Source: an uncultured delta proteobacterium (lineage in GTDB: Bacteria; Desulfobacterota; RBG-13-43-22). From it: a DNA stretch of 64,000 nucleotides. Numbering within the stretch: the first letter of the stretch is position 1; the number at the start of each line of letters is the position of its first letter. The stretch covers positions 32,001-96,000 of the forward strand of contig CAVQFQ010000021.1 of NCBI GenBank assembly GCA_963711835.1, read 5' to 3'. Positions 7,188 through 24,830 of this stretch are shown piece after piece. The notes beneath the pieces were generated by a model. That model searched no databases and was not told the DNA's origin. It saw nothing but the letters and a program-made list of their open reading frames with translations. Both the position numbers and the translations under genes were made by a program.

Positions 7188-8414
7188 TTAAAGAATAAGA
7201 AATCGCTCATCCGCCAGAGTTAATTTTTCCACCCGGTCCTTATGGATTACAACCGTATTTTCAAATCCTACGGCCCCCTTCTCCAGAACAATTTTGAGCT
7301 CCAGAGCCAGGGTCATGCCTTCACGCAGGGGATAAGTATGGCCGGGGGCCAGAAAGGGATTTTCCGGACTTTCCAGCCCCACCCCATGGCCCACGTAGCG
7401 GATCTTTCTTTCAAGTGGTCCGAGAAACACATCCTCATATCCCAGTTCCCTGCCTTTAGCCAGGGCCAGGGGGAAAAGACTCTCCGCCGGAACCCCCGGA
7501 CGCAGGTGCTGAAGCAGATGGGCTTCGATTTCCATCAAGGCTTCATAGGCCTCCAAATATTCATGGCCTGGTTTTCCAATGGAATACATTCGGGTCTGAT
7601 CTACCTGGTAGCCGGTGTAGCAGGTGCCGAAATCGATCAACACCGGCTCCTTTTCTTGGATAGGTTTCAGGCTGGCCCCCAAAGGAAAGGCCGGACTAAG
7701 GCCCAGCCCTGAAAAGGGGGCGTCTATATTGCTGGGCAGGGTGCCCAACCGGCCGCTGACGACATGCCAGGTATAGATCTCACTGTTGAATCCCCGGCTG
7801 CGCAGGATGTTTTGGTGGCCCTGGCGCATGGCCAGGTAATTCATCCAGCCGGCGATTTCGATCTCAGAGCTGCCGGGACGGATAGTTTCGCAAATTTCCC
7901 GATAAATTTTCCCGCCGATCTCCCCTGCCCTTTTCAACAGACCCAGTTCATATTCAGACTTGGTCTCCCGAAGCGACCTGATCAAAGGCCAGACATCCCG
8001 GGACTGTTCAAATTTGAGAATTTCCTTCAGGAATTGGAAGGTGGAAAAAGGTAGCACGTCCAGCTCCAACCCAAGGCAGGCGGGGATGCGAAGGCCGCAC
8101 CGGCGGATCCCTTCACCCAGGTCGGTTATGGAGGACAGCCATTCAACTCTTTCCAGAGGGCTCTCCGCCTGGGCCCTTTGAAATTCTTTCTTAATTAAAA
8201 GTATTGGTTCCCCTTCCGAAGGAAGGAAAAGAAATCCATTTTGCAGGGTTCCGGTAAAATAATAGAGATCCACATTCTGATAAATAAGGGCCCCTTCGAT
8301 CCCTTCCGTTGACAGGAGCTTCTGAAAAGACAGAATCCTGCGGTTTATCTCCTCAGGCGGCGTTAAGGTGTCCCGGTAAAAAGAGGGGAGAGTAAATTCA
8401 CTGTTAATCGCCAT
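7188..8414 (-). CDS. M24 (Xaa-Pro) peptidase family protein
   Basis: Creatinase-N-like DLYYFTG; D-x10-D (IDFGTCYTGYQVDQTR), GHGVGLE, ALELK, GFENT metal motifs. Confidence 0.85.
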   Translation of the reverse strand: MAINSEFTLPSFYRDTLTPPEEINRRILSFQKLLSTEGIEGALIYQNVDLYYFTGTLQNGFLFLPSEGEPILLIKKEFQRAQAESPLERVEWLSSITDLGEGIRRCGLRIPACLGLELDVLPFSTFQFLKEILKFEQSRDVWPLIRSLRETKSEYELGLLKRAGEIGGKIYREICETIRPGSSEIEIAGWMNYLAMRQGHQNILRSRGFNSEIYTWHVVSGRLGTLPSNIDAPFSGLGLSPAFPLGASLKPIQEKEPVLIDFGTCYTGYQVDQTRMYSIGKPGHEYLEAYEALMEIEAHLLQHLRPGVPAESLFPLALAKGRELGYEDVFLGPLERKIRYVGHGVGLESPENPFLAPGHTYPLREGMTLALELKIVLEKGAVGFENTVVIHKDRVEKLTLADERFLIL

Positions 8415-8548
8415 AATCCAACTCCAATCTTTCAACCTAAAAAACAAACAAAGCCGGTTTTTTAGGTATTAATAATCCCGAAAAGCCTCAACCTTATAGG
8501 TATCCATGATAACAAAAATGGTGGTTTTCCTAAAGGTCATTTTTTTGC

Positions 8549-8649
8549 TTGACAAAATCTTTTCCTAATATTATTAGACTAAGAAAGTTATTAAATTTTA
8601 ATTGGTTATCAATTAAACACCGGTTAATAAAGATAATTATCCTAATTAT
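8549..8649 (+). promoter_or_regulatory. Sigma70-like promoter and candidate TetR operators
   Basis: TTGACA at 8549 with tattag 17 nt downstream; inverted repeats tttaattg-N5-caattaaa (8597-8617) and ataatta-N3-taattat (8633-8649). Confidence 0.5.
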
Positions 8650-8663
8650 ATTAGTTTTTTAAC

Positions 8664-9269
8664 ATGAATAATAAAACCCCCAAAGAAAGCACCAAAGACC
8701 GCATTATAAATTCCGCTAAAAAGCTTTTTGCCGACCAGGGCTATCAAAAGACTACCGTTGTCGACATTTCCAAGCAGGCCGGACTGTCGGAGGCGGCCCT
8801 TTACGAATATTTTCAGGGCAAGGAGGACTTACTGCTGACCATACCCGATCTCTGGGTGGCGGACCTGATCGAAGACCTCAAAGACCAGCTTTTCGGTCTC
8901 AAAGGGGCCTTCAACAAGCTCCGGAAATACCTCTGGTGGAACATGCGACGGATCGAGCAGTCTCCTCTGGATGCCAAGATTGTCTATCTGTTTCTAAAGA
9001 CCAATGCCAATTTCATGAAGACCGAGGTTTACTCCAACGTCAAAATCCTTTATTCTTTCCTGACCGATATCTTTGAGGAAGGAAAGAAGAGCGGGGAAAT
9101 GAAACCGGACCTGGATCCCCTGCTGGCCCGGGCCATCTTTATCGGTGCCATGGACCACCTGGTAACCCGTTGGCTGCTGAAGGACATGTCTTATTCCCTG
9201 TTCGACAACCTGGAAGGGGTCTTTTCCTTAATGGAAGATGCCTTTCGAATTTCGGATTTGAAAACTTAA
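8664..9269 (+). CDS. TetR/AcrR family transcriptional regulator
   Basis: RIINSAKKLFADQGYQKTTVVDISKQAGLSEAALYEYFQGKEDLL HTH. Confidence 0.95.
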   Translation: MNNKTPKESTKDRIINSAKKLFADQGYQKTTVVDISKQAGLSEAALYEYFQGKEDLLLTIPDLWVADLIEDLKDQLFGLKGAFNKLRKYLWWNMRRIEQSPLDAKIVYLFLKTNANFMKTEVYSNVKILYSFLTDIFEEGKKSGEMKPDLDPLLARAIFIGAMDHLVTRWLLKDMSYSLFDNLEGVFSLMEDAFRISDLKT

Positions 9270-9287
9270 ACAAACGAAGGAGGGCAA

Positions 9288-11279
9288 ATGGCAAAGTTAC
9301 TGTTTGAATGGGATTACTCGTCCTACCCGGGGGCCCAACGGTACCCCAACCTTTTCAAGCCGATCCAGATCGGGAATCTGATGATTCCCAACCGGATCAA
9401 GTATGCCGCCACCGAGGACAACTTCAATGACCACAAGGGCTTTGTCACCGATGCCGATGTGGCCTACATGCGGGCCAGGGCCGAAGGCGTCGTCGGCGGT
9501 CTGTGCTTCATGCAGGGGGTGTATATGGATCCGGCCCGCAAGGGCCAGGGCTATGTGGGGCAGGCCGGAGCCTGGGACGACCAATACATCCCCGGCCTGA
9601 AAAGGCTGGCCGATGCCATTCACGGCGAACGGGCCGTGGCCGGCTTTCAGTTGATGGACTGCGGCCGCGTAGGCGCCGTGGAAGTGGAAAGCGGGCATGG
9701 TCCCTCTACCGTCCCCCAACGGCTCCGGGTCTTCAAACCCATGTTTGAGATGACCCATGCCGAAGTAAAGGAGATGATCCAACAACACGTCGAGGCGGCC
9801 ATACGAGGTCTGAAGGCCGGATTCGATATTATCGAGATTTCCGGTATCGTGGGTTATTTGATCTCCAACTTTCTCTCCAGCTATACCAATCGCCGGACCG
9901 ACGAATACGGCGGGGATATCCGCGGCCGGTCTCAGGCCATGATTGAGATCATCCAGGGCGTTAAGGCGGCCGTGGGTCCGGATATCCCGCTGGGCATCCG
10001 CCTTTGCTCCGAAGAACTACTCAATGATGTCCGGGGCAATACACCCGAAGAATCCATGATGACCTATAAGTTCGCCGAAGAAGCCGGGGCCGATTATATC
10101 AGTTGCACCCTGGGCTGGCAGGAATCCATCTTCCCGGTCATCAGCCGCGACATTCCCCAGGGCAACTGGCTCTACCTGGCCAAGCGGGCCAAGGAAAACG
10201 TCAAGATCCCCATCCAGATGGCCTATCGGATTTTCCTCCCCCACTTCCCCGATAGCGCAATAGCCAAAGGAGAACTGGATATTTGGGAGATCTGCCGCTC
10301 TATGATCGCCGATCCCCTGATGCCGAAAAAAGTGGCTGAGGGGCGGGAGGACGAAATCCGCCATTGCGTGGCCTGCAACCTTTGCCTGGCCCGTCTCTTC
10401 CGGGATGCACCCATGACCTGCTACATCAATCCCCTCTGCGCCCATGAACACGATCCGCGCTTTTATCCCCAGCCGGTCAAAGAAGAGGATAAAAAGAAGA
10501 TCATGATCGTCGGGGCCGGTCCTTCCGGACTGGAATGCGCCTATGTGGCGGCCCAGCGGGGCCATGAAGTCCATGTCTATGACAAACGGAACGAGCTGGG
10601 CGGCACCATCCTGGAGGCCTCCAAGGCCCCCTACGGCGACGATGAACTCATGACCTGCATCAACTTTCAAAAAACCCTCTGCAATAAATTCGGGGTCCAG
10701 TTCCACCTGGGAACCGAAGTGACCGATGAAATGATTTCCGACGAACTGCCTGACACCGTGGTCCTGGCTACCGGTCCGATTTATTCCCGCCTTACCGGCA
10801 AGGTAGCTGAGGGGGCCAAAGTGGTCAACATCCTGGATGTCATGGCCGGCAAGGTTGAAGTGGGCGAAAACGTCATCGTTTATGGAAACCGGAAACCGGG
10901 CATCGGCTGCGCCCTTCACCTGTCCAAACAAGGCAAGAAGGTCACCCTGGTCGGCAAAGAAAAGTCAGCCGGCTTTGACGTCAACCCCTCTTTCAAATGG
11001 CGGTATATGATCTACCTCCGGCAACACGGGGTCATGGTCTATAACGACTGCGATCTGGAAGAGGTGAATGCCGGCGAGGTCATTGTCAAAACCTATGACG
11101 GCTACCGATTTCCCTTGAAATGCGACACCATCATCCTTTCCGAACGGCAGGCCAACGAGAGTCTCAAGAAATCCGTCCTGGCGGAGGGGATTGAACATTT
11201 TGTCATCGGAGATGCCTTGGTGCCTCGTAACCTGTCCAGCGCCGTTCATGACGGCTACCGGGTCGGACTCCGGATCTAA
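9288..11279 (+). CDS. OYE-family FMN/[4Fe-4S]/FAD oxidoreductase (2,4-dienoyl-CoA-reductase architecture, atypical active site)
   Basis: LFKPIQIG..NRI, GYLISNFLS..NRRTDEYGG, CVACNLC-x11-C cluster motif, GAGPSG FAD motif. Confidence 0.9.
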   Translation: MAKLLFEWDYSSYPGAQRYPNLFKPIQIGNLMIPNRIKYAATEDNFNDHKGFVTDADVAYMRARAEGVVGGLCFMQGVYMDPARKGQGYVGQAGAWDDQYIPGLKRLADAIHGERAVAGFQLMDCGRVGAVEVESGHGPSTVPQRLRVFKPMFEMTHAEVKEMIQQHVEAAIRGLKAGFDIIEISGIVGYLISNFLSSYTNRRTDEYGGDIRGRSQAMIEIIQGVKAAVGPDIPLGIRLCSEELLNDVRGNTPEESMMTYKFAEEAGADYISCTLGWQESIFPVISRDIPQGNWLYLAKRAKENVKIPIQMAYRIFLPHFPDSAIAKGELDIWEICRSMIADPLMPKKVAEGREDEIRHCVACNLCLARLFRDAPMTCYINPLCAHEHDPRFYPQPVKEEDKKKIMIVGAGPSGLECAYVAAQRGHEVHVYDKRNELGGTILEASKAPYGDDELMTCINFQKTLCNKFGVQFHLGTEVTDEMISDELPDTVVLATGPIYSRLTGKVAEGAKVVNILDVMAGKVEVGENVIVYGNRKPGIGCALHLSKQGKKVTLVGKEKSAGFDVNPSFKWRYMIYLRQHGVMVYNDCDLEEVNAGEVIVKTYDGYRFPLKCDTIILSERQANESLKKSVLAEGIEHFVIGDALVPRNLSSAVHDGYRVGLRI

Positions 11280-11293
11280 GAAGGAGGTGTGCC

Positions 11294-11824
11294 ATGCCAG
11301 TTAATGCGACCAAAGAAATTACGACCTTATGGAGAAATCTCCATGGTGCCCAGGATGAAATCTGCAAAACCTTTTACCGCTGGCGGCAGGCCGCCCTGGA
11401 AGCTGCCGGTCCGGAGGCCAAGCCCCTGGATGTAGCTCTGAAAGCAGCCGAGATCTTCGGCAAGGAAATCGGGAAAAGCTTCCTGCCCCGCCTCAATTGG
11501 CTCAAAGGCAAGGAGGCCTTTATGGGGAGTTTGGCCGGGCTCATAGCCGGTTCTTGGGCCAACGAAGGGGCCGTCACTCAGGTTGAAAAAGGCGAAAAGG
11601 CCAACGAGGTCATCATTAAATGCACCCGGGATCCCTGGCCCAGCTTCGCCAAAGATTACGGCGTTCCCATGGAAGAGGTTGCCCTGACCCGGGAGAAGAT
11701 TCTTCAGACCATCCTGGAAGACGTGAGCGCCTTCTTTTGCATCAAGCTGGGTATTGAAATGCTCAAAGCCATCCCCAGAGGCCACGGCCTTTATATTTTC
11801 AGGCTCTACGAGATCGAAGGGTAA
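11294..11824 (+). CDS. Hypothetical protein, V4R/ATC-hydrolase-like fold (tentative)
   Basis: RBS aaggaggt; helical N-terminus then VIIKCTRDPW...KAIPRG..YIFRL pattern resembling V4R-type domains. Confidence 0.55.
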   Translation: MPVNATKEITTLWRNLHGAQDEICKTFYRWRQAALEAAGPEAKPLDVALKAAEIFGKEIGKSFLPRLNWLKGKEAFMGSLAGLIAGSWANEGAVTQVEKGEKANEVIIKCTRDPWPSFAKDYGVPMEEVALTREKILQTILEDVSAFFCIKLGIEMLKAIPRGHGLYIFRLYEIEG

Positions 11825-11835
11825 GGAGGTTGAAT

Positions 11836-12042
11836 ATGGCAGCTCAAGTGGATCCCAAAAAATGTACGATGTGCGGGGGGACCATGCAGCCGCTCTGCGT
11901 GGAGGTCTGTCCCGATGCCGCCATCCGGGTGCAGGATGGGCGAGTGGTGGTCACGGAATTCATCTGTGAGGACTGCAATGAATGCGGCTGTGTCTGTCCC
12001 GACCAAGCCATCAAGGTGCCTATGGAAAAGGTGACGTTCTAA
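11836..12042 (+). CDS. 2x[4Fe-4S] ferredoxin
   Basis: CTMC-x7-CVEVCP and CEDCNECGCVCP; RBS aaggaggt. Confidence 0.9.
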   Translation: MAAQVDPKKCTMCGGTMQPLCVEVCPDAAIRVQDGRVVVTEFICEDCNECGCVCPDQAIKVPMEKVTF

Positions 12043-12063
12043 CAAGGTGGGTTTGAGATGTCG

Positions 12064-12195
12064 GATACTGGATAAAAACAAAAAACGATACTGGATGCTG
12101 GATAAAGACCCGTTCTGTATTGGTTTGTTTTCATCCAGTATCCAGTATCGGTATTTTATCCAGAATCGGATGCAAAATCCTTGACCCCTTGAATC
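12064..12195. repeat. Inverted heptamer repeat (gatactg/catccag) hairpin plus octamer repeat
   Basis: gatactggat...gatactggatgctggata facing catccagtatccagtatc; same family at 2085, 14701, 32572, 42270. Confidence 0.75.
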
Positions 12196-12276
12196 CTTTG
12201 ATTGCCCACCCTGGTGCAGGTGATCATCAAATGCCCAGAGAATCCATAAGGGACATAATGCCGGAGGAGAAAAGAA

Positions 12277-12714
12277 ATGAAAGTCAACAAAATGGATCAT
12301 ATCTGTATCGCCGTTAAGAATTTGGATGAGGCTCGAAAGACCTGGGAACCTCTTTTGGGAAAAACAGGTCCTGATGATGCCTATATCGACGAACCGGAAA
12401 AGATCAGGGTAGCCCGTTACTGGGTGGGCGAGATCGGCTTTGAGCTCATGGAATCCACCACCCCGGATGGCGATGTGGCCAAGTTCATCGAAAAACGGGG
12501 CGAAGGGGTCATGCTCATCAGTTTTAACGTGGGCAATACCCGGGAAGCGGTCCAGGAGCTTCAGGGAAAGGGGTTTCCCTTTATTCCCGATCCCAAAGGA
12601 GAAATCGCCCGGCCTTTCCGGGACTGCGAGTTTGCCTTTGTCCATCCAAAAAAATTAAACGGCGTTCTGACCGAACTCATTGATTATAAGTGGGATGAGT
12701 TGAAGGGCAAGTAA
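12277..12714 (+). CDS. VOC family protein (methylmalonyl-CoA epimerase-like)
   Basis: MDHICIAVKNLDEA, FELMES, VAKFIEKRGEG, FVHPKKLNGVLTELI. Confidence 0.85.
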   Translation: MKVNKMDHICIAVKNLDEARKTWEPLLGKTGPDDAYIDEPEKIRVARYWVGEIGFELMESTTPDGDVAKFIEKRGEGVMLISFNVGNTREAVQELQGKGFPFIPDPKGEIARPFRDCEFAFVHPKKLNGVLTELIDYKWDELKGK

Positions 12715-12738
12715 TAGACAACCTGACATCTTGGTTTA

Positions 12739-12878
12739 AAATTCGAAATTCGATCCGTCGCCGCGGACGAAACAAACTCAAATGATCAAAATCCAAAACT
12801 CGAAAGGTTTTTGTTTGGAACATTTGAATTTAGAAAATTTGGGTTTGTTTCGGATTTCGTGCTTCGGGTTTCGAATTT
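12739..12878. repeat. ~140-bp intergenic palindrome (REP-like); half copy at 21496-21560
   Basis: aaattcgaaattcg...cgaaacaaa / tttgtttcggatttcgtgcttcgggtttcgaattt; reverse-complement copy cgaagcacgaaatccgaaacaaa at ~21508. Confidence 0.7.
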
Positions 12879-12917
12879 AGAGGTTTTTCCTGTTGAACGA
12901 GTCTGGAAAAATAGTCT

Positions 12918-13124
12918 ATGGCCAAACGAAATGTTTTTGAAGTTTACCTGGTCTACGTTGATCCGGATCGCTGCGACGGCTGCGAGGAATGCATCAAATT
13001 CTGCCCGGTGGACGTCTTTGATATGTTCCACAAGGCCATACCGGCCCGGCCTCGACACTGCCTGGGCTGCCGGACCTGCGAGGGAGTCTGCAAGTCGAAG
13101 GCTATAGTGATTACGGAGATTTAA
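12918..13124 (+). CDS. 2x[4Fe-4S] ferredoxin
   Basis: CDGCEECIKFCP and CLGCRTCEGVC. Confidence 0.9.
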   Translation: MAKRNVFEVYLVYVDPDRCDGCEECIKFCPVDVFDMFHKAIPARPRHCLGCRTCEGVCKSKAIVITEI

Positions 13125-13353
13125 AAAGAGGGGTCAAGTAGGAAATAACCTGCCTGATAAACTCCCGGGGAAATATCGTTGAGGTTCATTCCGCCGAAAG
13201 CCGGAATCTAGTACCTTAAGCCATTTTTGGATCGCAGGTTTTGCGGGAGCGGAAACAATTGGCTCGTTATATGAACGTCTGATGTAATTTTTTTCTGGAC
13301 CCTCGAACCCTTGAATCCTTGACCCCTTGAACCCTGGTATTTAGGACTTCGAT

Positions 13354-14712
13354 ATGAGTGATGCTATTCTGGTAATCGGCGGCGGCATTGCCGGCATCAA
13401 TTGCGCCCTGAACGCCGCCAAATACGGCACCAAAGTCTATCTGGTGGATGATACCCCTAGTATCGGGGGCATGATGGCCCGCCTGGACAAGACCTTTCCT
13501 ACCAATGATTGTTCCATCTGCATCGAATCCCCGGAAATGTACGAGGTAAACAATCACCCGCAAATCGAAATCCTGACCAACACCGAGGTTCGCAAGGTCA
13601 ACCGGGTCAATGGAAACTTCAAAGTCAAACTCCAGAAAAAAGCCAAGTTTATCGATGAAGAAAAATGCACCGGCTGTGGAGCCTGCGTCGAGGCCTGCCC
13701 GGTCAGCTTGCCCGACGTCATGGACGGCAAGATCGGAGGTCGGCGAAAACTGATCTCTCTGGCCTTTCCCCAGGCGGTTCCCAATTGCGTTTACCTCGAT
13801 CCGGACTGCCGTCACGGCCGGAAGCGGGACCAGGGTGCCTGTGTCGGAGGCTGCGTAGTAGACTGCAGCCAATGCCGGGAATGCCCCATCGCCCTCTGTG
13901 TCAAGGCCTGTCAAAAAGAAGGGAAAGATGCGATCCGTCTCTGGCAATCCAACAAAAATCTCGATCTGGAAGTAAAAAGCATCGTAGTCGCCGCCGGGAT
14001 CATGGGCGCCCCTCCTCCCCAAGGTCTCTACGGGTATGATCTGTTTCCTAACGTCATCACCAATATTGAGTTCGAGCGTCTGATGAATGCCGGCGGTCCC
14101 ACGGAAGGCCGGATCATCCGGCCTTCCGATCAGAAGCATGCCCAGCGCATCGCCTGGATCCAGTGCGCCGGCCGGGGACTGGTGACCGGTGTGCCCTACT
14201 GCTCCAAAGTCTGCTGCATGATCGCCGCCAAACAGACTATTATCACCAAGGAACATGACCCGTCGGTGGAAACCACCATCTTTTATAATGACTTGAAAGC
14301 CTATGGGAAAGGCTTTTGGGGTTTTTACCGCAAGGCCCTGGAGAGCGGGGTCCGTTATGTGCGGGCCCGGCCGCATGATGTCTGCGAAGATCCGGAAACA
14401 GCCAATCTGATTCTTCGCTTCGAGGATCTTGAAAGCGGAGATATCCGGACTCAGGAATGTGACCTTTTGGTCCTGTCCACCGGGTTGATCCCCAGCGACC
14501 GCAACGAAAAGCTGGCCAAGGTTCTCGGAATCGAGCTGGATAAATTGGGATACTTTAAAGAGGAAAACCCTCTTAGAGACCCGCTGGCCACCCGGATCGA
14601 AGGCATCTATGTCTGCGGCGGGGCAACCGGCCCCATAGACATTTCCGAATCAGTGGTCCAAGCCACGGCCGCCAGTATGAAAGCGGTATTAAGAAGACAA
14701 GATACTGGATAA
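13354..14712 (+). CDS. hdrA: HdrA-like FAD/Fe-S protein (N-terminal half, QmoA-like)
   Basis: GGGIAG, LDKTFPTNDCSIC, CTGCGACVEACP, WIQCAG, YCSKVCC, GPIDISESV. Confidence 0.9.
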   Translation: MSDAILVIGGGIAGINCALNAAKYGTKVYLVDDTPSIGGMMARLDKTFPTNDCSICIESPEMYEVNNHPQIEILTNTEVRKVNRVNGNFKVKLQKKAKFIDEEKCTGCGACVEACPVSLPDVMDGKIGGRRKLISLAFPQAVPNCVYLDPDCRHGRKRDQGACVGGCVVDCSQCRECPIALCVKACQKEGKDAIRLWQSNKNLDLEVKSIVVAAGIMGAPPPQGLYGYDLFPNVITNIEFERLMNAGGPTEGRIIRPSDQKHAQRIAWIQCAGRGLVTGVPYCSKVCCMIAAKQTIITKEHDPSVETTIFYNDLKAYGKGFWGFYRKALESGVRYVRARPHDVCEDPETANLILRFEDLESGDIRTQECDLLVLSTGLIPSDRNEKLAKVLGIELDKLGYFKEENPLRDPLATRIEGIYVCGGATGPIDISESVVQATAASMKAVLRRQDTG

Positions 14713-14800
14713 AGACAAAAAACGATACTGGATGCTGGATAACTTCTAATACGCTATTTTGGGATTCTCATCCAGTATCCAGTATCCGGCATCCAGTATC
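14701..14800. repeat. Inverted heptamer repeat hairpin
   Basis: gatactggat...gatactggatgctggat / catccagtatccagtatccggcatccagtatc. Confidence 0.75.
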
Positions 14801-14827
14801 GTTTTTTTATCCGGAAAAGGTTTCCAA

Positions 14828-16888
14828 ATGAACGAAGAAATCAGGGTCGGTGTTTTTATCTGTGACTGCGGATCCAATATCGCCGGGGTGGTTAATGTCC
14901 CCGAACTGGTGGAGTACGCCAAAGGGCTTGACCGGGTCGTCTTGGCCGATGAAGGCCGATGGTCCTGTTCGGTGGACTACCTGGCCCGCTTACAGGATTC
15001 CATCAAGGAGCACAACCTCAACCGGGTGGTGATCGCCTCCTGTACCCCGCGCACCCATGAACCCTTATTTAAACAAACGGTCAAAGAAGCCGGGCTTAAT
15101 CCCTATCTCCTGGAATTCGTCAGCATCCGCGAGCAGGTTTCCTGGGTCCACATGAAAGAGCCGCAGAAAGCCACCGATAAGGCCAAGGACCTGGTCCGTA
15201 TGGGTGTGGCCAAGGCCGTCCTCCTGGAAGAAGGGGAAGAGATCCGCCTGCCGGTCGGCAGCGACTGTCTGATCATCGGGGGCGGGATGGCCGGCATGAC
15301 TGCGGCCTTGCAAATCGCCGACCAGGGCTTTCAGGCCATCCTGGTGGAAAAAGAAGCCCGTCTGGGCGGACTGCTCAACAAAATATCCCACATCTCCCAT
15401 GACCACTACAACCTGCCGGCTGAGGAAATCCTTCAGGAGATGATCGCCCGGGTGCAGGCCCATCCCCGTATAAAAATATTTTCCAATGCCGAAATTGAGA
15501 GCTTGGAGGGGTATATCGGGAACTACCGCCTGGTCCTGAAGGCTGACGGCAACCAGGTGAATTTCCCGATTTCCACCGTGATCGTGGCCACCGGCATGAA
15601 GGAGCTTGAACCGATTGGCTTGTTTGAATACGGCCGCGATCCGAAGGTCATCACCCAGCTTCAACTGGAAGAACGATTGAAAGCCGGCGGTTTGGGACCA
15701 ATCAAAGATGTAGTCATGATCAACTGCGTCAATTCCAAAAACGATACCCGGGGCTGTTGTAATGTAGGTTGTCCCATTTCAATAAAAAATGCCCTGGTCC
15801 TTAAGTCCCTCTTTCCCGAGGCCCGCATTCATATTCTTTACCGCGACCTGAGTCTGGTGAAAGAGGAGCATTTCCCTTTGGATGCCGCCAAAGGGGCCGG
15901 CATCAAGTTTATCCGGTTTCCGGACAGCCGCTATCCTGAAGTAAATCAGGTCCATGGGGGGCTGCAGATAAAGGTCTATGATATCTTATTAGGCCGAGAA
16001 CTCTCCCTTCCCTGCGATTTATTGGTTCTGACTACGGCCTTTACCGGTGACGATACGGTGGAAAAGGTCAAAGGACTCCTGAAGGTCTCCAGTAATGCCG
16101 AAGGGTTCTTTCAGGAAAGACATATCAAACTCGGGCCCTTGGATTTTCCGGCCGACGGCATCGCTCTGTGCGGCTGTGCCAAGAATCCCAAAAGCCTCAA
16201 GGAGACCTGTGAAGAAGGCTTAGGGGCGGCCATGCGGGTCTCCATCCCCATGAACAGGGGTTTTATTGAAGCCGAAGGAATCGTAGCCGAAATAGACCCC
16301 TCCCTCTGCAACAACTGCGGCATCTGCTGGAAGCGTTGCCCCTACACGGCCATCAAGGTGACCGAAGCCAAGGAACCGCTGGTCATCAAGGCCCTCTGCA
16401 AAGGCTGCGGCTTGTGCGCCGCCGACTGCCCGAAGGAGTGTATCACTATCGTTCATTATACCGATGCCCAGCTCCAGGCCCAAGTGGAAGCGGCTTTGGC
16501 CGAAAACCCAGGAGAAAAAATCCTGGGTTTTGTCTGCCACTGGTGCGCGCTGGGCGGTGTGGACATGGCCGGTGTCAGCCGCCTCCAATACCCGACTCAT
16601 GCCCGATTGATCCGAGTCATGTGTTCGGCTCGGGTGCCCATCAAGCTGATCGAACGGGCCTTTGAACTGAAGGCCGGCGGCGTACTGGTGGCCGGATGCG
16701 AATTCCCCACCTGTCACTATATTTCCGGCAATTACGCCTGCGAAACACGGGTGAAACGGGCCAAAGGCAAGCTGGCTAAAAAAGGCTACGACCCGGATAA
16801 GCTCTGGAACGTCTGGTGTTCGGCCGCCGACGGCCCCAAGTTCGCCAACACCATGCGGGTAATGTCCAAGCAGTTAGGCCTAACATAA
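14828..16888 (+). CDS. hdrA: HdrA-like protein fused to C-terminal MvhD domain (QmoB-like)
   Basis: GVFICDCGSNIAG, SCTPRTHE, GGGMAG, CNNCGICWKRCP, CKGCGLCAADCP, then GFVCHWCALGGVD...RVMCSARV..AGCEFPTCHY. Confidence 0.9.
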   Translation: MNEEIRVGVFICDCGSNIAGVVNVPELVEYAKGLDRVVLADEGRWSCSVDYLARLQDSIKEHNLNRVVIASCTPRTHEPLFKQTVKEAGLNPYLLEFVSIREQVSWVHMKEPQKATDKAKDLVRMGVAKAVLLEEGEEIRLPVGSDCLIIGGGMAGMTAALQIADQGFQAILVEKEARLGGLLNKISHISHDHYNLPAEEILQEMIARVQAHPRIKIFSNAEIESLEGYIGNYRLVLKADGNQVNFPISTVIVATGMKELEPIGLFEYGRDPKVITQLQLEERLKAGGLGPIKDVVMINCVNSKNDTRGCCNVGCPISIKNALVLKSLFPEARIHILYRDLSLVKEEHFPLDAAKGAGIKFIRFPDSRYPEVNQVHGGLQIKVYDILLGRELSLPCDLLVLTTAFTGDDTVEKVKGLLKVSSNAEGFFQERHIKLGPLDFPADGIALCGCAKNPKSLKETCEEGLGAAMRVSIPMNRGFIEAEGIVAEIDPSLCNNCGICWKRCPYTAIKVTEAKEPLVIKALCKGCGLCAADCPKECITIVHYTDAQLQAQVEAALAENPGEKILGFVCHWCALGGVDMAGVSRLQYPTHARLIRVMCSARVPIKLIERAFELKAGGVLVAGCEFPTCHYISGNYACETRVKRAKGKLAKKGYDPDKLWNVWCSAADGPKFANTMRVMSKQLGLT

Positions 16889-16914
16889 AGCTTTTTTATG
16901 CAATTTTTCTTTTC

Positions 16915-17096
16915 GCCACAGACGGACGCAGACCTTCAAATTGGATCTGGGGCGGTCCGTTATAAACCAAAACGGACCACCCCAGTCTTGCCAGCCCTTT
17001 CGGGCACAAATTCGGCTTTAGCCCGGACAGGATTTTACCGGCCTTAGTCGGCCGGAAAAATATCCCGTCTGCCTTTGTCCGTGTGGGTCTGTGGCA
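16915..17096. repeat. Intergenic inverted-repeat element
   Basis: gccacagacggacgcagac ... gtccgtgtgggtctgtggc arms. Confidence 0.55.
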
Positions 17097-17116
17097 AAAA
17101 AATTGAGGTGTTCTTA

Positions 17117-18838
17117 ATGCCAATGGCTGTAAAAATCGACGGCGTCAACATGTTCCGCACCTGCGAGCAGTGCGGCTATTGCAGCTCGGCCTGCCCGGTT
17201 TCCGGGGTCAACGGTTTTAATATCCGGCGTATCCTCAGGCATGCCGAATTGGATATACTCGATGAATTGGCGCCAACGCCGCTGCCCTGGACCTGCACCA
17301 CCTGCGGACGATGCGAAGGAGTCTGTCCCAACGGCATCGCCATACTGGACATCATCCGTCCCCTTCGTTCCCTGTCCCCTCCGGAGTTTGTTCCAGACGG
17401 TCCGCCCTGCACCCTGGCCTGCCCGGCCGGAATCGATGTACCGGGGTATGTGCGGCTGATTGCCCAAGGAAAGCCCGAGGAAGCCTATGCCCTGATCCTC
17501 GGCAAAGTACCCTTTCCGGGAATCCTGGGCAGGGTCTGCACCCATCCCTGCGAAACCTCCTGCCGGAGAAGGGAAGTGAATCAGCCGATCGCCATCTGCG
17601 CCTTGAAGCGTTTTGCTGCGGATAAAGGAGGCCAAACCCCGGCGAGTTGGCTGACGATTTCTCCCGATACGGGCCGCCGAGTAGCGGTCATCGGCGCCGG
17701 TCCGGCCGGATTGACAGCCGCTTTTTATCTGCGTCGGAAGGGCCACTGGGTCAGCCTGTTCGAAGAAAAACCCAAACCGGGGGGCATGATGCGCTACGGC
17801 ATCCCGGCCTATCGGCTGCCTGAAGATATTTTGGAAAATGAGATCAATCGGGTTTTGTCGGCCGGAATAGAGCTGAAAACCAATCAAGCCTTGGGCCGGG
17901 ACTTCACTTTGGGGCAGTTACAGGCGGATGGATTTGAGGCGGTCTTCCTATCCCTGGGTCTTTCTTCGAGCCGAAAAATCGAGTTGGAGGGGGTCGCCCT
18001 GGACGGAGTCCTCTGGGGGGTGGACTTTCTTAAAGCCGTAAAAGAAGGACAAGCCCCGGACCTGAAGGAGAAAGTCATGGTCATCGGCGGCGGCAATGTG
18101 GCCGTGGATGTGGCCCTGACCGCCCTTCGGCTGGGGGCCAAGGAAGTAACCCTGGCCTGTCTGGAGAAGCGAGAGGAGATGCCGGCCAACCCCTGGGAGA
18201 TCGAAATGGCCCTGGAAGAAGGGGTCAAGATCATGGCTGCCTGGGGGCCCCATAAGATTTTAGGGGATACCGGTCAGGTCAGCGGCATCGAATTGATCCA
18301 ATGCACTTCGGTCTTTGACGCCCAGGGGTATTTCTGCCCCCGGTTCGGGGAGGCCAGAGAATCGCTGCCAATGGATCAGGTCATCCTGGCTGTCGGCCAG
18401 ACAACCGACTTATCCTTTGTTCCGGGAGACCTGTCTCTGGGAATGGAAAAGGGGCTGATCGTTATTGACCCTGAAATCCTTCAAACCAATCTGTCCGGTG
18501 TCTTTGCCGGCGGTGACATCGTCAAAGGACCAGGCACCATCATCGAAGCCATCGCTTCGGGCCGGAAAGCCGCCTCTTCCATCGATCGATTTCTGGGAGG
18601 CGACGGCAATATCGAAGAATCTTTCACCTGGAATCAGGAGTCTGTTGACTATTCCGGTAAAAGGGAACAAGGTTTTGCCGATCAGCGGCGGGAAGAGAAC
18701 CCTGTATTGCCCGTGTCGGAGAGGACCCCCGGCTTTCCCGAAGTGGACCTGCCTTTCACCGACGAACAGGCCTTGAGAGAAGCCGCCCGCTGTCTCCAGT
18801 GCGACTTGGAAATCCGCCTGGCCCTGGCAGAGGGCTAA
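17117..18838 (+). CDS. HdrC-like Fe-S domain fused to GltD-like NAD(P)H:flavin oxidoreductase
   Basis: CEQCGYCSSACP, WTCTTCGRCEGVCP; PCTLACPAGID, GRVCTHPCE, GAGPAG, GIPAYRLP, GGGNVAVD, EAARCLQC. Confidence 0.9.
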   Translation: MPMAVKIDGVNMFRTCEQCGYCSSACPVSGVNGFNIRRILRHAELDILDELAPTPLPWTCTTCGRCEGVCPNGIAILDIIRPLRSLSPPEFVPDGPPCTLACPAGIDVPGYVRLIAQGKPEEAYALILGKVPFPGILGRVCTHPCETSCRRREVNQPIAICALKRFAADKGGQTPASWLTISPDTGRRVAVIGAGPAGLTAAFYLRRKGHWVSLFEEKPKPGGMMRYGIPAYRLPEDILENEINRVLSAGIELKTNQALGRDFTLGQLQADGFEAVFLSLGLSSSRKIELEGVALDGVLWGVDFLKAVKEGQAPDLKEKVMVIGGGNVAVDVALTALRLGAKEVTLACLEKREEMPANPWEIEMALEEGVKIMAAWGPHKILGDTGQVSGIELIQCTSVFDAQGYFCPRFGEARESLPMDQVILAVGQTTDLSFVPGDLSLGMEKGLIVIDPEILQTNLSGVFAGGDIVKGPGTIIEAIASGRKAASSIDRFLGGDGNIEESFTWNQESVDYSGKREQGFADQRREENPVLPVSERTPGFPEVDLPFTDEQALREAARCLQCDLEIRLALAEG

Positions 18839-18856: not shown

Positions 18857-19366
18857 CTAATTTTTATTTACTGTACCCTTTTGGCTTAATGGTCTAACCT
18901 TGGATCCTGGAACTATCTCCAGTCGATCAATGCCATGGACTTCGAATTCTTCCATGTATCTAATACGATATGGTTCTTCTTTCTTGACCCGAGCCATTGG
19001 ATCAAGGGCCAGGTATTTTTTCTCTCCTAATTCACGATAAAGATCCCGTGCTACAAGACGCTCGATCAATTCATCCCAGAAACTGTCGTTTTCAAATTCT
19101 TCAATATAGTCCATCGAAGGATTCGTTTTTTCAAACTCCAGAGTCGGAAAATAGCTCTGCAATTCCGGGTCATAGTCAACCAAGTGGCCGTTTCCAAAGT
19201 CTTTGGCCAGACCGCAAATTTTCTGTTCTAAATCCCGATAGGGCTTGGTCTCCTCCGGCTCATCGATCTTGTGGGCATAGAGGATCCACTCAGCCATTTC
19301 AATCATTTCAAATAGGGTTTTAAATTCACTTTTTGTGATCTCGATTTTCATCTTACTTTTCCTCAT
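18857..19366 (-). CDS. Hypothetical protein
   Basis: 169-aa acidic ORF filling the gap between convergent genes; no motif recognised. Confidence 0.65.
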   Translation of the reverse strand: MRKSKMKIEITKSEFKTLFEMIEMAEWILYAHKIDEPEETKPYRDLEQKICGLAKDFGNGHLVDYDPELQSYFPTLEFEKTNPSMDYIEEFENDSFWDELIERLVARDLYRELGEKKYLALDPMARVKKEEPYRIRYMEEFEVHGIDRLEIVPGSKVRPLSQKGTVNKN

Positions 19367-19428: not shown

Positions 19429-21453
19429 CTATTTTCTAAATTCCGGCTTCCTTTTTTCCAGAAAGGCCGAGATGCCCTCCCTGGCCGCATCAGTGCAGGC
19501 GATCTCCCCGAAGCCCTGATAACCAATCTCCAGGGCCTCCGCCAGGGTTTCGGCCTTGGCAGCCGCCTGGATCGTTTTCATGGTAATGGCAACGGCCTCC
19601 CTGCTCAAAGGCCGTTTGCCGGCCAGAGGAGGATCGGGAAGCTGAAATTCAGGCAGATCCACCCTGCCCTCGGGAATCCTTTCAATCTTTCCCTGGAGGT
19701 TCTTGACCTCTTCAACAGCCATTTCAATCATCCCGGCATAATCATCGGCCAATTTTTTAACCAGCCCCACCTCCGCGGCCTCCTTGGCCGGGATGGGTCT
19801 GGCCAGGCAGATCATTTCATGAAAAAGCTTTGCCCCCTGAGGCCAGCGGCGATATGGCACGACGCAGCCGCCGATTCCGGGCAGGATGCCCAGGGTAATT
19901 TCCGGGAATTGAAAGGTGGATTTCCGGGTAGCCACGATGCCGTGGCAGCGCAGGGCCACTTCCAGACCGCCGCCCATGGCAAAACCGTTTACCGCAGCTA
20001 CCACCGGCTTGTCCATCTGATCCATGAAGCGTTGGACCTTGGCGCAATCCCGACTATACTGAACTGCGGCCTCCTTGTCGCCCAGCATCTCAGGGAATTT
20101 TCCGATGTCCGCCCCGGCTGAAAAAGCCTGATTTCCATAACCGGTAATGACAAACCCTTTTACTCCCGGATCCTGGCTGTATTTCATAAGGACGGACAGG
20201 ATTTCATCGGTGATTACATCGCTCAGGGCGTTCATAGCCTGAGGCCGGCGGAGGGTAATGATTTTAACGCCTTCTATTTCATCCAGCAGCAGGTAACGGT
20301 TGAAGTCCAGATAATAAGAGAGACCCTGCCTGGCTGAAGGAAACCCCGGCCGGTCCTTCTGAAATCGGCTCATAATGCGATTGACTTCCTTTTCGCCCAA
20401 CTCCGCCATGATATCCAATACCCCTTTCCGAAAGCCGAGGGCTATCTGGCAGCCGAAGTTGAGGTCTTCCCGGGTCCCGATGCCGCGGTCTATGACGTCA
20501 AAGGCTTGCGAGAAAAGGATCCCCAGCAGCCGGTCCCGGATGGTCCCTTTCAAGGCCTCCGGCACCTCCACTTTAGCGCCCGGACGATGGGTCAGCCATT
20601 TCTCCACCGATCCCAGAATGGCAGCCGGTTTATAATGAGCGCCCTCTTCCATCTGGAGGGTGTTGGTTTCGATGATGATCGGATTTCCGTTGGCCAGATT
20701 CAGGACAAAGAACGGACCGGCGGAAACAAAGGCTTCGGCCACCTTGTCGATCTGGCCGGCGTTGGCCTGGTCCAGCAGATAGGCGGCATCGTTGCACCAG
20801 TTGTCGAAGATGCGGTCCAGCATAAAGCAAAGGGCATTATCCGTTACCATCGGGGCCTTGCCGGTAGCGGCAAAAAACCAGCAGAGCCAATCCACGGTAT
20901 CCGGATCGGCCCCCGGCCAGTTGATTACTTCCACGGGAAGGGAACGCCAGGCCGGGGCAAAAAAGTGAGTAATGGTGGTCCGTTCCTGACGTTTCATTTT
21001 GTTAAAGATCCGGTCGGCCGGGATGGAACTGGTATTGGAGGTAATGATCGCCTGGTCGCTGACGATGCCTTCTACTGTCTCAAAGATCTTTTGCTTGATC
21101 GGGATGCGCTCCGTAGCCGCTTCGATAACCAGGTCGCAGTTTTTAATCTGAGCGTAATCCTGGGTATAGAGGATGCCCCCCAGGACTTCCCGGGCCTTTT
21201 CCTCTTTCATCTTCTTCATGTCCAGGGCTTTTTGCACATATCCGGCCAGCCTCTTCTCGGCCTTTTTGAGGGGCTCATCGGCTACATCAACCAGATATAA
21301 CCGGATGCCGGGCAGGGCGCTCTTCAGGTAATAGCCGATGTCCGGGCCGATGGTCCCGGCGCCGATCACGGCGATTTCTTTGGGCAACGGCCTTTTCGGT
21401 TTCAGAAATAAGGGATTAAAAAACGAGGGGTAGAGTTTTTTCACTTGATCCAT
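19429..21453 (-). CDS. 3-hydroxyacyl-CoA dehydrogenase / enoyl-CoA hydratase fusion (HAD-ECH order)
   Basis: VIGAGTIG, VIEAATE, SNTSS, HFFAPA; C-terminal LRRPQAMNAL, FSAGADI, AMGGGLE, PEITLGILPGIGG. Confidence 0.92.
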   Translation of the reverse strand: MDQVKKLYPSFFNPLFLKPKRPLPKEIAVIGAGTIGPDIGYYLKSALPGIRLYLVDVADEPLKKAEKRLAGYVQKALDMKKMKEEKAREVLGGILYTQDYAQIKNCDLVIEAATERIPIKQKIFETVEGIVSDQAIITSNTSSIPADRIFNKMKRQERTTITHFFAPAWRSLPVEVINWPGADPDTVDWLCWFFAATGKAPMVTDNALCFMLDRIFDNWCNDAAYLLDQANAGQIDKVAEAFVSAGPFFVLNLANGNPIIIETNTLQMEEGAHYKPAAILGSVEKWLTHRPGAKVEVPEALKGTIRDRLLGILFSQAFDVIDRGIGTREDLNFGCQIALGFRKGVLDIMAELGEKEVNRIMSRFQKDRPGFPSARQGLSYYLDFNRYLLLDEIEGVKIITLRRPQAMNALSDVITDEILSVLMKYSQDPGVKGFVITGYGNQAFSAGADIGKFPEMLGDKEAAVQYSRDCAKVQRFMDQMDKPVVAAVNGFAMGGGLEVALRCHGIVATRKSTFQFPEITLGILPGIGGCVVPYRRWPQGAKLFHEMICLARPIPAKEAAEVGLVKKLADDYAGMIEMAVEEVKNLQGKIERIPEGRVDLPEFQLPDPPLAGKRPLSREAVAITMKTIQAAAKAETLAEALEIGYQGFGEIACTDAAREGISAFLEKRKPEFRK

Positions 21454-22922: not shown

Positions 22923-23495
22923 ATGAATTTTTATCGTAACGAATCCTTATCCCTTGATTTTAGAAATCCTCCCCCAGGCCCACCGATCCTTTCAGGCCGT
23001 GACAACCGGCAAGGCTGGACCCTTATTGAAATGCTGACCATTATTGCGGTCATTGGTATTATCGCCGCTATCGGCATCCCTAATTTTTCAAACTGGATTC
23101 ACAGCTTTCGCTTAAAAAATGCCGCCAGTGATATGATGTCCAATCTTCATAAGGCCCGAATGAGAGCGATCAGTCAGAATAGCAACTGTGTGGTGTCCTT
23201 TGATCTGACCGGTTCCGGGAGTTATCTCCTGTTTATGGACGACGGCGCGGGAGGAGGCACAGCCAAAAACGGCCTAAGAGACGGCTCTGAAGAACTGATC
23301 AAGAGTGTTTCTCCGGCCACCGATAATCCCGGCATTGCCTTAATCGGCGTCACCTTAGACGGGTCCTCCGCCTATGGGTTTACCCCCATGGGGTTGTCTT
23401 TCGCCAACCGCTCCGGATCCGTAGTTTTTCAAAATCAAAGCGGCACAACACGCCAGGTCGATCTTTCGGCCGGGGGAAATATCAGCCTTCATTGA
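22923..23495 (+). CDS. fimT: FimT/GspH-family minor pilin
   Basis: Class III signal RQG|WTLIEML..., LHKARMRAI, GFTPMG. Confidence 0.85.
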   Translation: MNFYRNESLSLDFRNPPPGPPILSGRDNRQGWTLIEMLTIIAVIGIIAAIGIPNFSNWIHSFRLKNAASDMMSNLHKARMRAISQNSNCVVSFDLTGSGSYLLFMDDGAGGGTAKNGLRDGSEELIKSVSPATDNPGIALIGVTLDGSSAYGFTPMGLSFANRSGSVVFQNQSGTTRQVDLSAGGNISLH

Positions 23496-23503
23496 GGTCG
23501 GGT

Positions 23504-23863
23504 ATGGGATTTAGAAAGAAGCGTAACCAAAAAGGATTTACCATATTGGAGGTTTTGATTGCCGTCTCGGTCTTCTCCTTTGCCTTGCTGGCCCTGGCCC
23601 AAATGCAGATTATGGCTATTCAAACCAATGCCACCAGCCAGCAGCGAACCACGGCCATCACCTTGGCCCAGGATAAAATGGAAATTTTAAAAAGGCTTCC
23701 TTATACCCAGATCGGCACCGGCAACGACGTTTCCGGCCTGTTTGCCCGAAGCTGGAATGTACAGAACGATTTCCCATCGAGCGGGATGAAAACCATAAAC
23801 CTCACGGTGAGCTGGGCCGCGGGTTCCAAGGCAGTAACGCTGCAGACCATGGTTACCCAATGA
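23504..23863 (+). CDS. pilV: PilV-like minor pilin
   Basis: QKG|FTILEVLIAV, AITLAQDKMEILK, LTVSW. Confidence 0.85.
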   Translation: MGFRKKRNQKGFTILEVLIAVSVFSFALLALAQMQIMAIQTNATSQQRTTAITLAQDKMEILKRLPYTQIGTGNDVSGLFARSWNVQNDFPSSGMKTINLTVSWAAGSKAVTLQTMVTQ

Positions 23864-24828
23864 AAAAAAGATTTCCTTTTAAACCTGCGGCCATAAAAAA
23901 ATTGTTTAAAAACTCAGGGTTTACCCTGGTTGAATTATTGGTGGCCATGTCCCTGAGCGGGATTATTGTTTCGGCGGTCTATAGCTTATTTATTCATCAA
24001 AACAAGAGTTTCATCGTTCAAGGGCAGGTGACCGAGATACAACAAAATCTCCGAGGTGCTTTGGAGATTATGGGCTTGGATATCAAGATGGCCGGCTTTG
24101 GATTTTCAACGACCGGAACAGCCTCCTACTATAACGGCAGCGGGATTGTCACTTTAAAATCGGTCGTGCCGACCAACAGCACTAACGGCCCGGATAGTAT
24201 TCAAATCAGTTACGGAGATAACGCCCTCAAAACAAAACTAAGCGAACCCGCACTTAAGGCCACCCACTCCGCTCCCCTGTCGGTGGATAATACAGCCGGC
24301 TTTCAGGTGAACGATATCATCCTCCTCAGCGATGGGACCAATGCTTCCTTATTACAGATAACGGGCATCAATACTTCGCAGCTCCTGCATGCCTCGGTCT
24401 CGGGCAATCTCAACCCCCCGGCGGGCATGGATTTTTTTCCCAGGGACTACGTGAAAGGGAGTTGGGTCTATAAATTAAAAAATGGTTCCTATCGGATTAC
24501 TAATGCCAACCCCAACCATCCCCGTTTGGAAGTGAACTGGGGTGGAGCCTGGACCGGCGGAACCTTTCAATCCCTGGCCGAAGATATCGAAGATCTCCAG
24601 ATTGCCTACCGGGATGATGTCGGTATCTGGCATTATACGCTCTCCAACAGCACACCGCCCGGAAATATTCGAGATGTCCGGCTCAATCTGGTCGGCAGGT
24701 CCAGAGGACTGGACCCGGTTTTTTCAGGACGGCGGCCTGCGCTGGAGGACCGTCCCAGCGGTATTTTGGACAACCTGCGCAGGAGAACCTTAACCACCAC
24801 CTTCATGATCAGGAATTTGGGGATTTAG
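23860..24828 (+). CDS. pilW: PilW-like minor pilin
   Basis: NSG|FTLVELLVAM, QQNLRGALEIMGLDIKMAGF, LAEDIEDLQIAY. Confidence 0.85.
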   Translation: MKKRFPFKPAAIKKLFKNSGFTLVELLVAMSLSGIIVSAVYSLFIHQNKSFIVQGQVTEIQQNLRGALEIMGLDIKMAGFGFSTTGTASYYNGSGIVTLKSVVPTNSTNGPDSIQISYGDNALKTKLSEPALKATHSAPLSVDNTAGFQVNDIILLSDGTNASLLQITGINTSQLLHASVSGNLNPPAGMDFFPRDYVKGSWVYKLKNGSYRITNANPNHPRLEVNWGGAWTGGTFQSLAEDIEDLQIAYRDDVGIWHYTLSNSTPPGNIRDVRLNLVGRSRGLDPVFSGRRPALEDRPSGILDNLRRRTLTTTFMIRNLGI

Positions 24829-24830
24829 AG

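Follow-up and report, generated by a model that had tools for sequence, protein, structure and literature searches.

The physiological source of electrons for class III aryl-CoA reductases is no more than an assumption in the report on 2-naphthoyl-CoA reductase (NCR), an Old Yellow Enzyme (OYE)-type flavoprotein whose FMN has a potential of -439 to -445 mV (PMC6502838). In class II benzoyl-CoA reductase (BCR), BamE is described as a single chain that forms an asymmetric HdrA dimer containing one bifurcating FAD (bioRxiv 10.64898/2026.04.10.717634), and in HdrA and BamE the MvhD (BamF) arm is the input, the inserted ferredoxin domain the low-potential exit, and the HdrC side the high-potential exit (bioRxiv 10.64898/2026.04.10.717634; PMC12350162). 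The anaerobic indoleacetate (iaa) pathway ends at 2-aminobenzoyl-CoA (PMC9613470, PMC8360864), and the literature searched, which left most subscription papers outside its coverage, yielded no identified enzyme for this compound in strict anaerobes. We analyzed a 64,000-nt stretch (the window; contig CAVQFQ010000021.1 of GCA_963711835.1, positions 32,001 to 96,000; coordinates are window positions unless they carry a contig or locus handle) in which an operon at 8664-18838 joins an NCR-like OYE to ferredoxins and an HdrA module. We tentatively propose that this operon encodes an ATP- and tungsten-free 2-aminobenzoyl-CoA (anthraniloyl-CoA) reductase that finishes anaerobic tryptophan/indoleacetate breakdown, a reading drawn from motifs and gene neighborhoods that falls somewhat short of an even chance. 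The component parts are known; neither the operon nor their combination and functional assignment was found described in the same literature.

All nine plus-strand open reading frames (ORFs) listed in the initial annotation are present in the order given there. A YsiA/FadR-like TetR regulator (8664..9269) is followed by the OYE (9288..11279), the predicted catalytic subunit; a 176-aa V4R-fold protein (11294..11824); ferredoxin 1 (Fd1; 11830..12042); a VOC protein (12277..12714); ferredoxin 2 (Fd2; 12918..13124); HdrA-1 (13354..14712); HdrA-2-MvhD (14828, the likely start, to 16888); and HdrC-GltD (17117, the likely start, to 18838). The cluster was said to have no HdrB, hydrogenase, or BamB gene, and none is found in it, nor are BamC, BamG, BamH, or BamI. 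For HdrB this is true of this cluster and not of the family, as five of the six related loci without HdrC-GltD have HdrC plus HdrB in its position. The OYE-Hdr linkage itself proved conserved. Scanning species genomes yielded 107 matches, the best 80 of which were kept and correspond to 76 loci (72 to 86% identity), hosted almost entirely by uncultured Desulfobacterota-type metagenome-assembled genomes (MAGs). When only loci with room for the next gene are scored, gene order is kept for the V4R-fold protein (75/75), Fd1 (71/71), VOC (69/69), Fd2 (58/59), HdrA-1 (52/52), HdrA-2-MvhD (49/49), and HdrC-GltD (34/40); TetR lies 5' of the OYE in 51/65 and so is not universal. In an even phylum sample of 351 genomes, the core OYE occurs at ≥69% identity in 6 (this genome included) and a sister OYE at 47 to 49% in 3. 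RNA contigs of one sediment study (runs X1-X3, shares 0.09-0.21) cover all operon genes; such contigs give no strand, level, or transcript. Promoter and terminator scans stayed at chance level. Intergenic gaps of 200 to 350 bp hold small palindromic or repeated elements (12057-12197, 12768-12852, 13298-13335, 14701-14829, and 16910-17100), and one intergenic element is present twice at 98% identity (12064 and 14701).

The best Protein Data Bank (PDB) match of the OYE was NCR (6QKG; E value of 1.6e-135, versus 6.3e-71 for FadH), which also ranked first in a fold search (TM 0.80, structural-alignment identity of 38%). The protein has three domains with FMN, [4Fe-4S], and FAD sites, and C360, C363, C366, and C378 are invariant in 30/30 sequences. 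NCR residues named in PMC6502838 were mapped by hand through the OYE-6QKG alignment and counted in 75 full-length orthologs. Tyr190 (SGIVGY190), Tyr89, Arg238, Thr274/Gly276, Tyr313, Asp564, and Asp642 are kept in all 75 and Glu334 in 74; the CoA and FMN residues are kept as well, the His pair at the FMN is absent, and equivalents of the NCR-type Tyr197, Tyr82, Arg245, and Glu341 are present. The NADPH-binding GxGxxG is lost in 75/75, GNRKPG standing there instead, and both this FadH motif and the FadH active-site histidines are missing. The initial annotation had taken the enzyme for a non-NAD(P)H type, which these residues bear out: the OYE appears to be a CoA-ester reductase of the NCR neighborhood that is unlikely to bind NAD(P)H. 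Changes relative to NCR include Glu43, which replaces V38 beside the FMN in 75/75, and H284 to Gln, W459 to Leu, E446 to Thr, and E541 to Lys. Two NCR hallmarks thereby fail, and we therefore do not file the OYE as an NCR. NCR W459, which blocks the NADPH site, is Leu454 in 74/75, that site being disrupted by GNRKPG instead, and of the acidic FAD surroundings E446/E541/D649 only D642 is kept (T440, K536). The NCR Phe cluster (F375/F379/F573) corresponds to L367, F371, and S568/F569, both helices being present in the model. A quick tree with long branches, from which NCR itself was left out, places the core OYE family (support of 100) next to a sister group sharing E43 (39-row clade, support of 93); locus L127 stood in for NCR at the motif level. 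The L127 protein (L127:1498-3432, genome G005), whose gene adjoins that of a hydratase, is NCR-like in its motifs, with Val where the core family has E43 and Trp at the W459 position; this OYE is a candidate true naphthoyl-CoA reductase. Sister OYE clades (43 to 49%; L113-L125, L085-L087) mostly keep E43, mostly carry a glycine-rich GGxGxG-type motif, and in most cases are followed by a small ferredoxin gene.

Genomic context ties the operon to the iaa pathway, a link that the initial annotation missed. Hydantoinase A/B, HAD-ECH, indolepyruvate oxidoreductase, TrpB2, and aminotransferases recur as neighbors, and an iaa hydantoinase ortholog was found in 46 of the 50 operon genomes given by the 76 loci, versus 43/351 at ≥65% identity in the phylum sample. 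One genome (G360) carries a single run of CoA transferase, electron transfer flavoprotein (ETF), acyl-CoA dehydrogenase (IaaF), B12 mutase, TRAP, PaaK-like ligase, XDH, hydantoinase, HAD-ECH, and thiolase genes and then the OYE operon; in another (G011) the iaa set and the operon are interleaved. The GGG motif defined for IaaF (PMC8360864) is present in the linked clusters; it is not unique, one unrelated acyl-CoA dehydrogenase here also having GGG. Linked clusters hold IaaF with this motif, ETF, CoA transferase, B12 mutase, and ligase, a content that places them in the iaa pathway without direct comparison to the Aromatoleum sequences. We take further cluster genes to be IaaCE, IaaIJK, IaaP, and IaaA, with HAD-ECH presumably IaaP-like. 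In this genome, the iaa cluster lies at C21:188370-205820 and IaaF/ETF at C17:239138-242427; the cluster contains frameshifts, with mutase and hydantoinase genes in pieces (G000:C21:190107-195589), probably from assembly indels. The HAD-ECH fusion beside the operon (19429..21453, minus strand) adjoins it in 11/76 related loci. It had been proposed to process the reductase product, which its iaa context, upstream of 2-aminobenzoyl-CoA, makes less likely; it likely helps make the substrate, 2-aminobenzoyl-CoA.

A shared operator runs through the same gene set. The GntR-type palindrome TGTATAC-N-GTATACA has 25 sites in 2.48 Mb, each lying no more than 450 bp 5' of an OYE, HAD-ECH, iaa, or Hcr-like gene (L013:7946, L021:9670/9802, L088:13897, L100:1082, L146:3408, and others), versus 0 in shuffled sequence, and genes that look GntR-like by sequence occur in several iaa clusters. 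An 11-bp direct-repeat motif, AGCTACATTAAAGCTA, stands just 3' of a TTGACA box upstream of the OYE in seven loci (L016:9918, L018:9921, L027:5091, L029:323, L031:121, L041:9286, and L043:9926). A TetR operator was sought separately and rejected: the palindrome near 8600 in the window shows no conservation, with 2 hits in 47 upstream regions versus 0.49 in shuffles, and a k-mer search returned AT-rich words only.

Which step the operon serves is suggested by its exchange with a molybdenum (Mo) enzyme. This Hcr-like enzyme, both subunits of which best match 4-hydroxybenzoyl-CoA reductase (1RM6) in the PDB, was found in 36 of the 39 iaa genomes that lack the operon and in 3 of the 54 that have it; among iaa-negative controls it occurs in 3/41. 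Within each of three families (f1, f69, and f10) the contrast persists, and for the first 38 operon genomes the Fisher P value was 5e-16, an overstatement, as kin are not independent. The Mo enzyme lies directly beside iaa genes in four cases, and the VOC gene next to it belongs, in 7/25 loci, to the same His-less subfamily as the operon VOC. Its loci (L106:13049-16915; also L136, L137, L141, and L151-L175) often continue with VOC, a saccharopine-dehydrogenase-like gene, and a class III aminotransferase. Hcr-like genes have been proposed for 4-aminobenzoyl-CoA in Desulfatiglans anilini (PMC7500099). Because all known iaa steps already have genes, the open slot would be 2-aminobenzoyl-CoA, and the near exclusion of operon and Mo enzyme suggests displacement at the step after it. 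We consider 2-aminobenzoyl-CoA the probable OYE substrate. The difficult reduction foreseen in the initial annotation, whose substrate had been left open, is thus upheld as that of an aryl-CoA. We also considered whether iaa genomes that lack the OYE rely on class I BCR instead and rejected this, as BzdO passes the cut-off in 1/27 of that group.

In the mechanism we propose, a mid-potential donor, probably reduced ferredoxin, would feed the HdrA-1 FAD by way of the HdrA-2/MvhD arm. From there, one electron would travel over HdrC and reduce NAD+ at the GltD domain (in the variants it would go to HdrB), and the low-potential electron would reach the FAD, [4Fe-4S], and FMN of the OYE via the inserted ferredoxin domain and then a small ferredoxin. 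Addition of hydride to C4 and of a proton (from Tyr190) to C3 would give 2-aminocyclohexa-1,5-diene-1-carbonyl-CoA. Delta/gamma regiochemistry is that of this OYE subfamily. By our own reasoning, the thioester is para and the amine meta to C4, C3 is primed to take up a proton, and the 3,4-dihydro product would be the enamine of the Oah substrate. Tautomerization and hydrolysis, by the VOC protein, by Glu43, or spontaneously, would then free ammonia and give 6-oxocyclohex-1-ene-1-carbonyl-CoA, which Oah would open, bypassing BCR. We estimate the overall couple very roughly at about -0.45 V, close to the NCR FMN. A flavin enzyme would in this way dearomatize a single benzene ring by hydride without ATP or tungsten, relying on the ortho-amino group to arrive directly at the Oah substrate and drawing power from a dedicated HdrA bifurcating module, a scheme we advance as possible and with some doubt.

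Genome content bears on which product is formed. Among the 39 Mo-type genomes, BamB is present in 38 and BzdO in the 39th, so that all have a BCR, as expected if they make benzoyl-CoA. Oah was over the cut-off in 14/15 operon genomes negative for BamB. One of the operon genomes, G380 (a one-record chromosome; L043, L111, and L190), has iaa, the OYE operon, and Oah; no BamB, BamH, BzdO/BcrB, or Had ortholog was found in it, and had is missing from its oah cluster. A BamD search lacked a positive control and was weighted as weak support only. For this genome, replacement of BCR by the OYE was ruled out: bamB-I, had, and oah are present, with a separate bamB-I cluster at C17:729955-740717. On this evidence, ring reduction to the Oah substrate is plausible and tentative, a little below an even call.

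The same exchange would fit a deamination of 2-aminobenzoyl-CoA to benzoyl-CoA, with hydride added at the amino-bearing carbon, Glu43 or VOC aiding the departure of ammonia, and class II BCR acting next. The operon swaps with a 4-hydroxybenzoyl-CoA-reductase-like enzyme whose genomes all (39/39) have BCR, the VOC subfamily is common to both, and BamB occurs in 39/54 operon genomes, this one included. In addition, NCR defluorinates 6-fluoro-naphthoyl-CoA (PMC6502838), and one review names benzoyl-CoA as the anaerobic product in Azoarcus. Such a route, however, would leave G380 without means to use benzoyl-CoA, and hydride attack on an amino-bearing ring carbon is, by our reasoning, chemically unfavorable; the reaction is also, by a rough estimate, exergonic enough overall that a dedicated bifurcating module would serve kinetics only. 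We judge deamination unlikely, if far from negligible. The iaa linkage and shared operator do not specify a step, and the OYE could instead act on another indole or iaa intermediate (2-aminocinnamoyl-CoA, an indolyl- or oxindolyl-CoA, or a substituted analogue), the Mo enzyme covering a related, non-identical step. The kept NCR carbonyl-binding residues would place a longer substrate over the FMN, the para carbon of 2-aminocinnamoyl-CoA overlays naphthoyl C6, and sister OYEs co-occur with the Mo enzyme; against this, every known iaa step already has genes in these genomes, and near mutual exclusion with the 4-hydroxybenzoyl-CoA-reductase-like enzyme points to a substituted benzoyl-CoA. Another intermediate is therefore improbable. 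A polycyclic aryl-CoA or general dienoyl-CoA substrate, with the iaa link reflecting shared ancestry and habitat, would accord with the 38% identity to NCR, with automatic names that read 2,4-dienoyl-CoA reductase, and with the 4/50 genomes without a hydantoinase match. Physical embedding in iaa operons, the shared operator, within-family swaps, and loss of the FadH NADPH motif speak against it and make it very improbable.

Several observations weigh against the proposed reduction of 2-aminobenzoyl-CoA to the Oah substrate. In addition to the frequency of BamB in operon genomes, 13/15 BamB-negative operon genomes retain a Had match, and 8/54 of all operon genomes lack one; incomplete assembly may therefore account for many of the missing BamB genes, and the shortcut past BCR rests mainly on G380. 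The Mo enzyme is itself no more than a candidate deaminating 2-aminobenzoyl-CoA reductase, and three genomes (G315, G358, and G387) have both it and the operon. The E43 sister OYEs, present in 12/39 iaa genomes versus 1/41 controls, co-occur with the Mo enzyme in 11/12, which fits different steps, and in G240 the two stand in one gene run. The palindrome was first noticed in three loci and then searched for, which makes it a post hoc motif, and no TGTATAC-N-GTATACA site was found in this genome. A very low FAD potential is not supported by the OYE sequence, W459 and two of the three acidic FAD residues being lost (L454, T440, and K536), and the operon encodes no donor for the MvhD arm. Finally, no cultured strain is among the matches listed, the MAGs and their kin make the counts overstate independence, and completeness of the 50 locus-derived genomes is not established.

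The power source in the proposed reductase would be the HdrA module. HdrA-1, labeled HdrA(N) in the initial annotation, matches residues 145-563 of HdrA (5ODC), that is, the FAD core with the inserted ferredoxin and without the N-terminal domain. HdrA-2 matches residues 2-234 and 320-649, comprising the N-terminal domain, a second TrxR core without the inserted ferredoxin, and a C-terminal ferredoxin, and ends in MvhD. The lysine of the bifurcating FAD (at FAD N5) is found as YCSxxCCMxxxK in 53/53 HdrA-1 sequences and PTNDC in 52/53; the OYE is thus linked, as had been claimed, to ferredoxins and a module with the bifurcating signature. All HdrA/BamE parts (N- and C-terminal domains with the MvhD input arm, inserted ferredoxin exit, and HdrC exit) are present, divided among HdrA-1, HdrA-2-MvhD, and HdrC-GltD, and HdrA-1 and HdrA-2 likely form a split BamE-like pair that rebuilds the asymmetric HdrA dimer. 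The GltD/NfnA-like flavodomain has an intact dinucleotide fold and, in most orthologs, an ACLE motif. We take this motif to be of NAD rather than NADP type. Because it is fused to HdrC and exchanged with HdrB, GltD is more likely a high-potential NAD+ sink than an NAD(P)H entry, by analogy with HdrA and BamE, and we infer reduced ferredoxin as the probable donor to the MvhD arm. The initial annotation had NAD(P)H enter at GltD. In that wiring, which would be compatible with any substrate, HdrA bifurcates and the high-potential electron leaves via MvhD to an unlinked acceptor; the lack of another encoded donor, the intact dinucleotide fold, and ETF/FixCX genes inside the operon in G011 suit it. 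GltD sits in HdrB's place, however, and the HdrA and BamE structures put the high-potential exit on the HdrC side and the input at MvhD/BamF, so entry at GltD is less likely; the wiring taken alone is unlikely, and flow from MvhD to an HdrC/GltD sink is moderately favored by the same analogy. Outside the window, at G000:C21:107338-119990, formate-dehydrogenase-like genes adjoin another split HdrA/MvhD set that includes GltD-like and HdrD-like genes; there the same split design comes with its donor encoded. Within the window, a 1,475-aa HdrA-GltD fusion (HdrL-like; 33192-37616, minus strand) lies between Fhs-like and MetV/MetF-like genes, labels given by the look of the sequences.

The 176-aa protein has an ATC-hydrolase/V4R (TRAPP, H-NOX) fold and is predicted to dock on the OYE as a small subunit. 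The modeled complex scored an ipSAE of 0.71, versus 0.00 for the best control; the mark set for such scores is reached by 116/157 solved pairs and 2/215 mismatched pairs. Contacts fall at OYE loops 141-147 and 246-249, runs share ≥97% of them, and partner pLDDT is ≥90. Binding is thus supported by prediction, not demonstrated. The VOC protein is methylmalonyl-CoA-epimerase-like. Its family has a VMLIS-type motif in place of HHIA in 67/69 clustered sequences, the other two being one true methylmalonyl-CoA-epimerase-type neighbor and one pattern mis-hit, and the HHIA His, which we take to be a metal ligand in that epimerase, is absent from the operon VOC; a tautomerase/deaminase or epimerase role may be envisaged. 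Fd1 would be the low-potential carrier to the OYE and Fd2 an input or output carrier of the HdrA module; a ferredoxin gene also adjoins sister OYEs.

Around the operon, an M24/creatinase-fold hydrolase (7188..8447, minus strand) has a 34 to 40% homologue 3' of the operon in eight related loci. An acidic 169-aa ORF between the operon and HAD-ECH (18857-19366, minus strand) did not turn up in related loci; neither it nor the 176-aa protein was assigned to a family by Pfam or NCBIfam. A search of 50% representatives yielded no names. Farther off lie tsaD (2136-3143), with a nonmatching stretch at residues about 20-74 that is probably due to assembly indels, and an ordinary type IV minor pilin cluster (FimT/PilV/PilW/PilX-like; 22923-26540).

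If true, the proposal would describe a third entry to the benzoyl-CoA pathway, a class III reductase that for the first time acts on a monocyclic ring, and the first natural source of electrons assigned to this class. As a soluble system of nine genes for which a substrate is named, the operon makes the class III donor and the fate of 2-aminobenzoyl-CoA testable, and a Mo-enzyme family emerges from the comparison as another candidate for this step. Both matter for tryptophan/indole carbon turnover in anoxic sediments, and should the shortcut hold, it would provide an oxygen-, ATP-, and tungsten-free dearomatization catalyst.

Set against described systems, the operon OYE shares with FadH (1PS9) the fold, cofactors, and a CoA-ester substrate and differs in lacking the NADPH motif and active-site histidines. 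The Aromatoleum iaa pathway has the same upstream gene set ending at 2-aminobenzoyl-CoA, and the presence of ETF in the cluster agrees with what is reported for strict anaerobes; the accessible parts of its descriptions name no OYE/Hdr operon as the downstream step (PMC8360864, PMC9613470), and BzdO was over the cut-off in only 2/80 genomes tested. With the 4-hydroxybenzoyl-CoA reductase family (1RM6) and the putative 4-aminobenzoyl-CoA reductase of D. anilini (PMC7500099), the operon would share low-potential removal of an aryl-CoA ring substituent, a relative filling the same genomic slot; the folds are unrelated, Mo contrasts with flavin, and the OYE may yield the Oah substrate as its end point where the Mo route yields benzoyl-CoA. 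NCR (6QKG; PMC6502838) has the same three-domain architecture, the IVGY proton donor without a His pair, no NADPH motif, and Y82, R245, E341, Y320, T280/G282, D569, and D649, all with equivalents in the operon OYE. It differs at V38 (Glu), H284 (Gln), W459 (Leu), and E541 (Lys) and is a monomer of unknown donor, whereas the operon OYE has a predicted V4R-fold subunit, ferredoxins, and an HdrA module, and its probable substrate is a monocyclic amino-aryl compound. Class II BCR BamB-I (bioRxiv 10.64898/2026.04.10.717634) likewise drives an aryl-CoA reduction with an HdrA pseudodimer that has one bifurcating FAD, takes in electrons at an MvhD/BamF-type arm, and releases the high-potential ones on the HdrC side; in the operon, the HdrA pair is spread over two genes, a flavin OYE takes the place of tungsten BamB, GltD or HdrB that of BamD/ETF, and BamGHI are absent.

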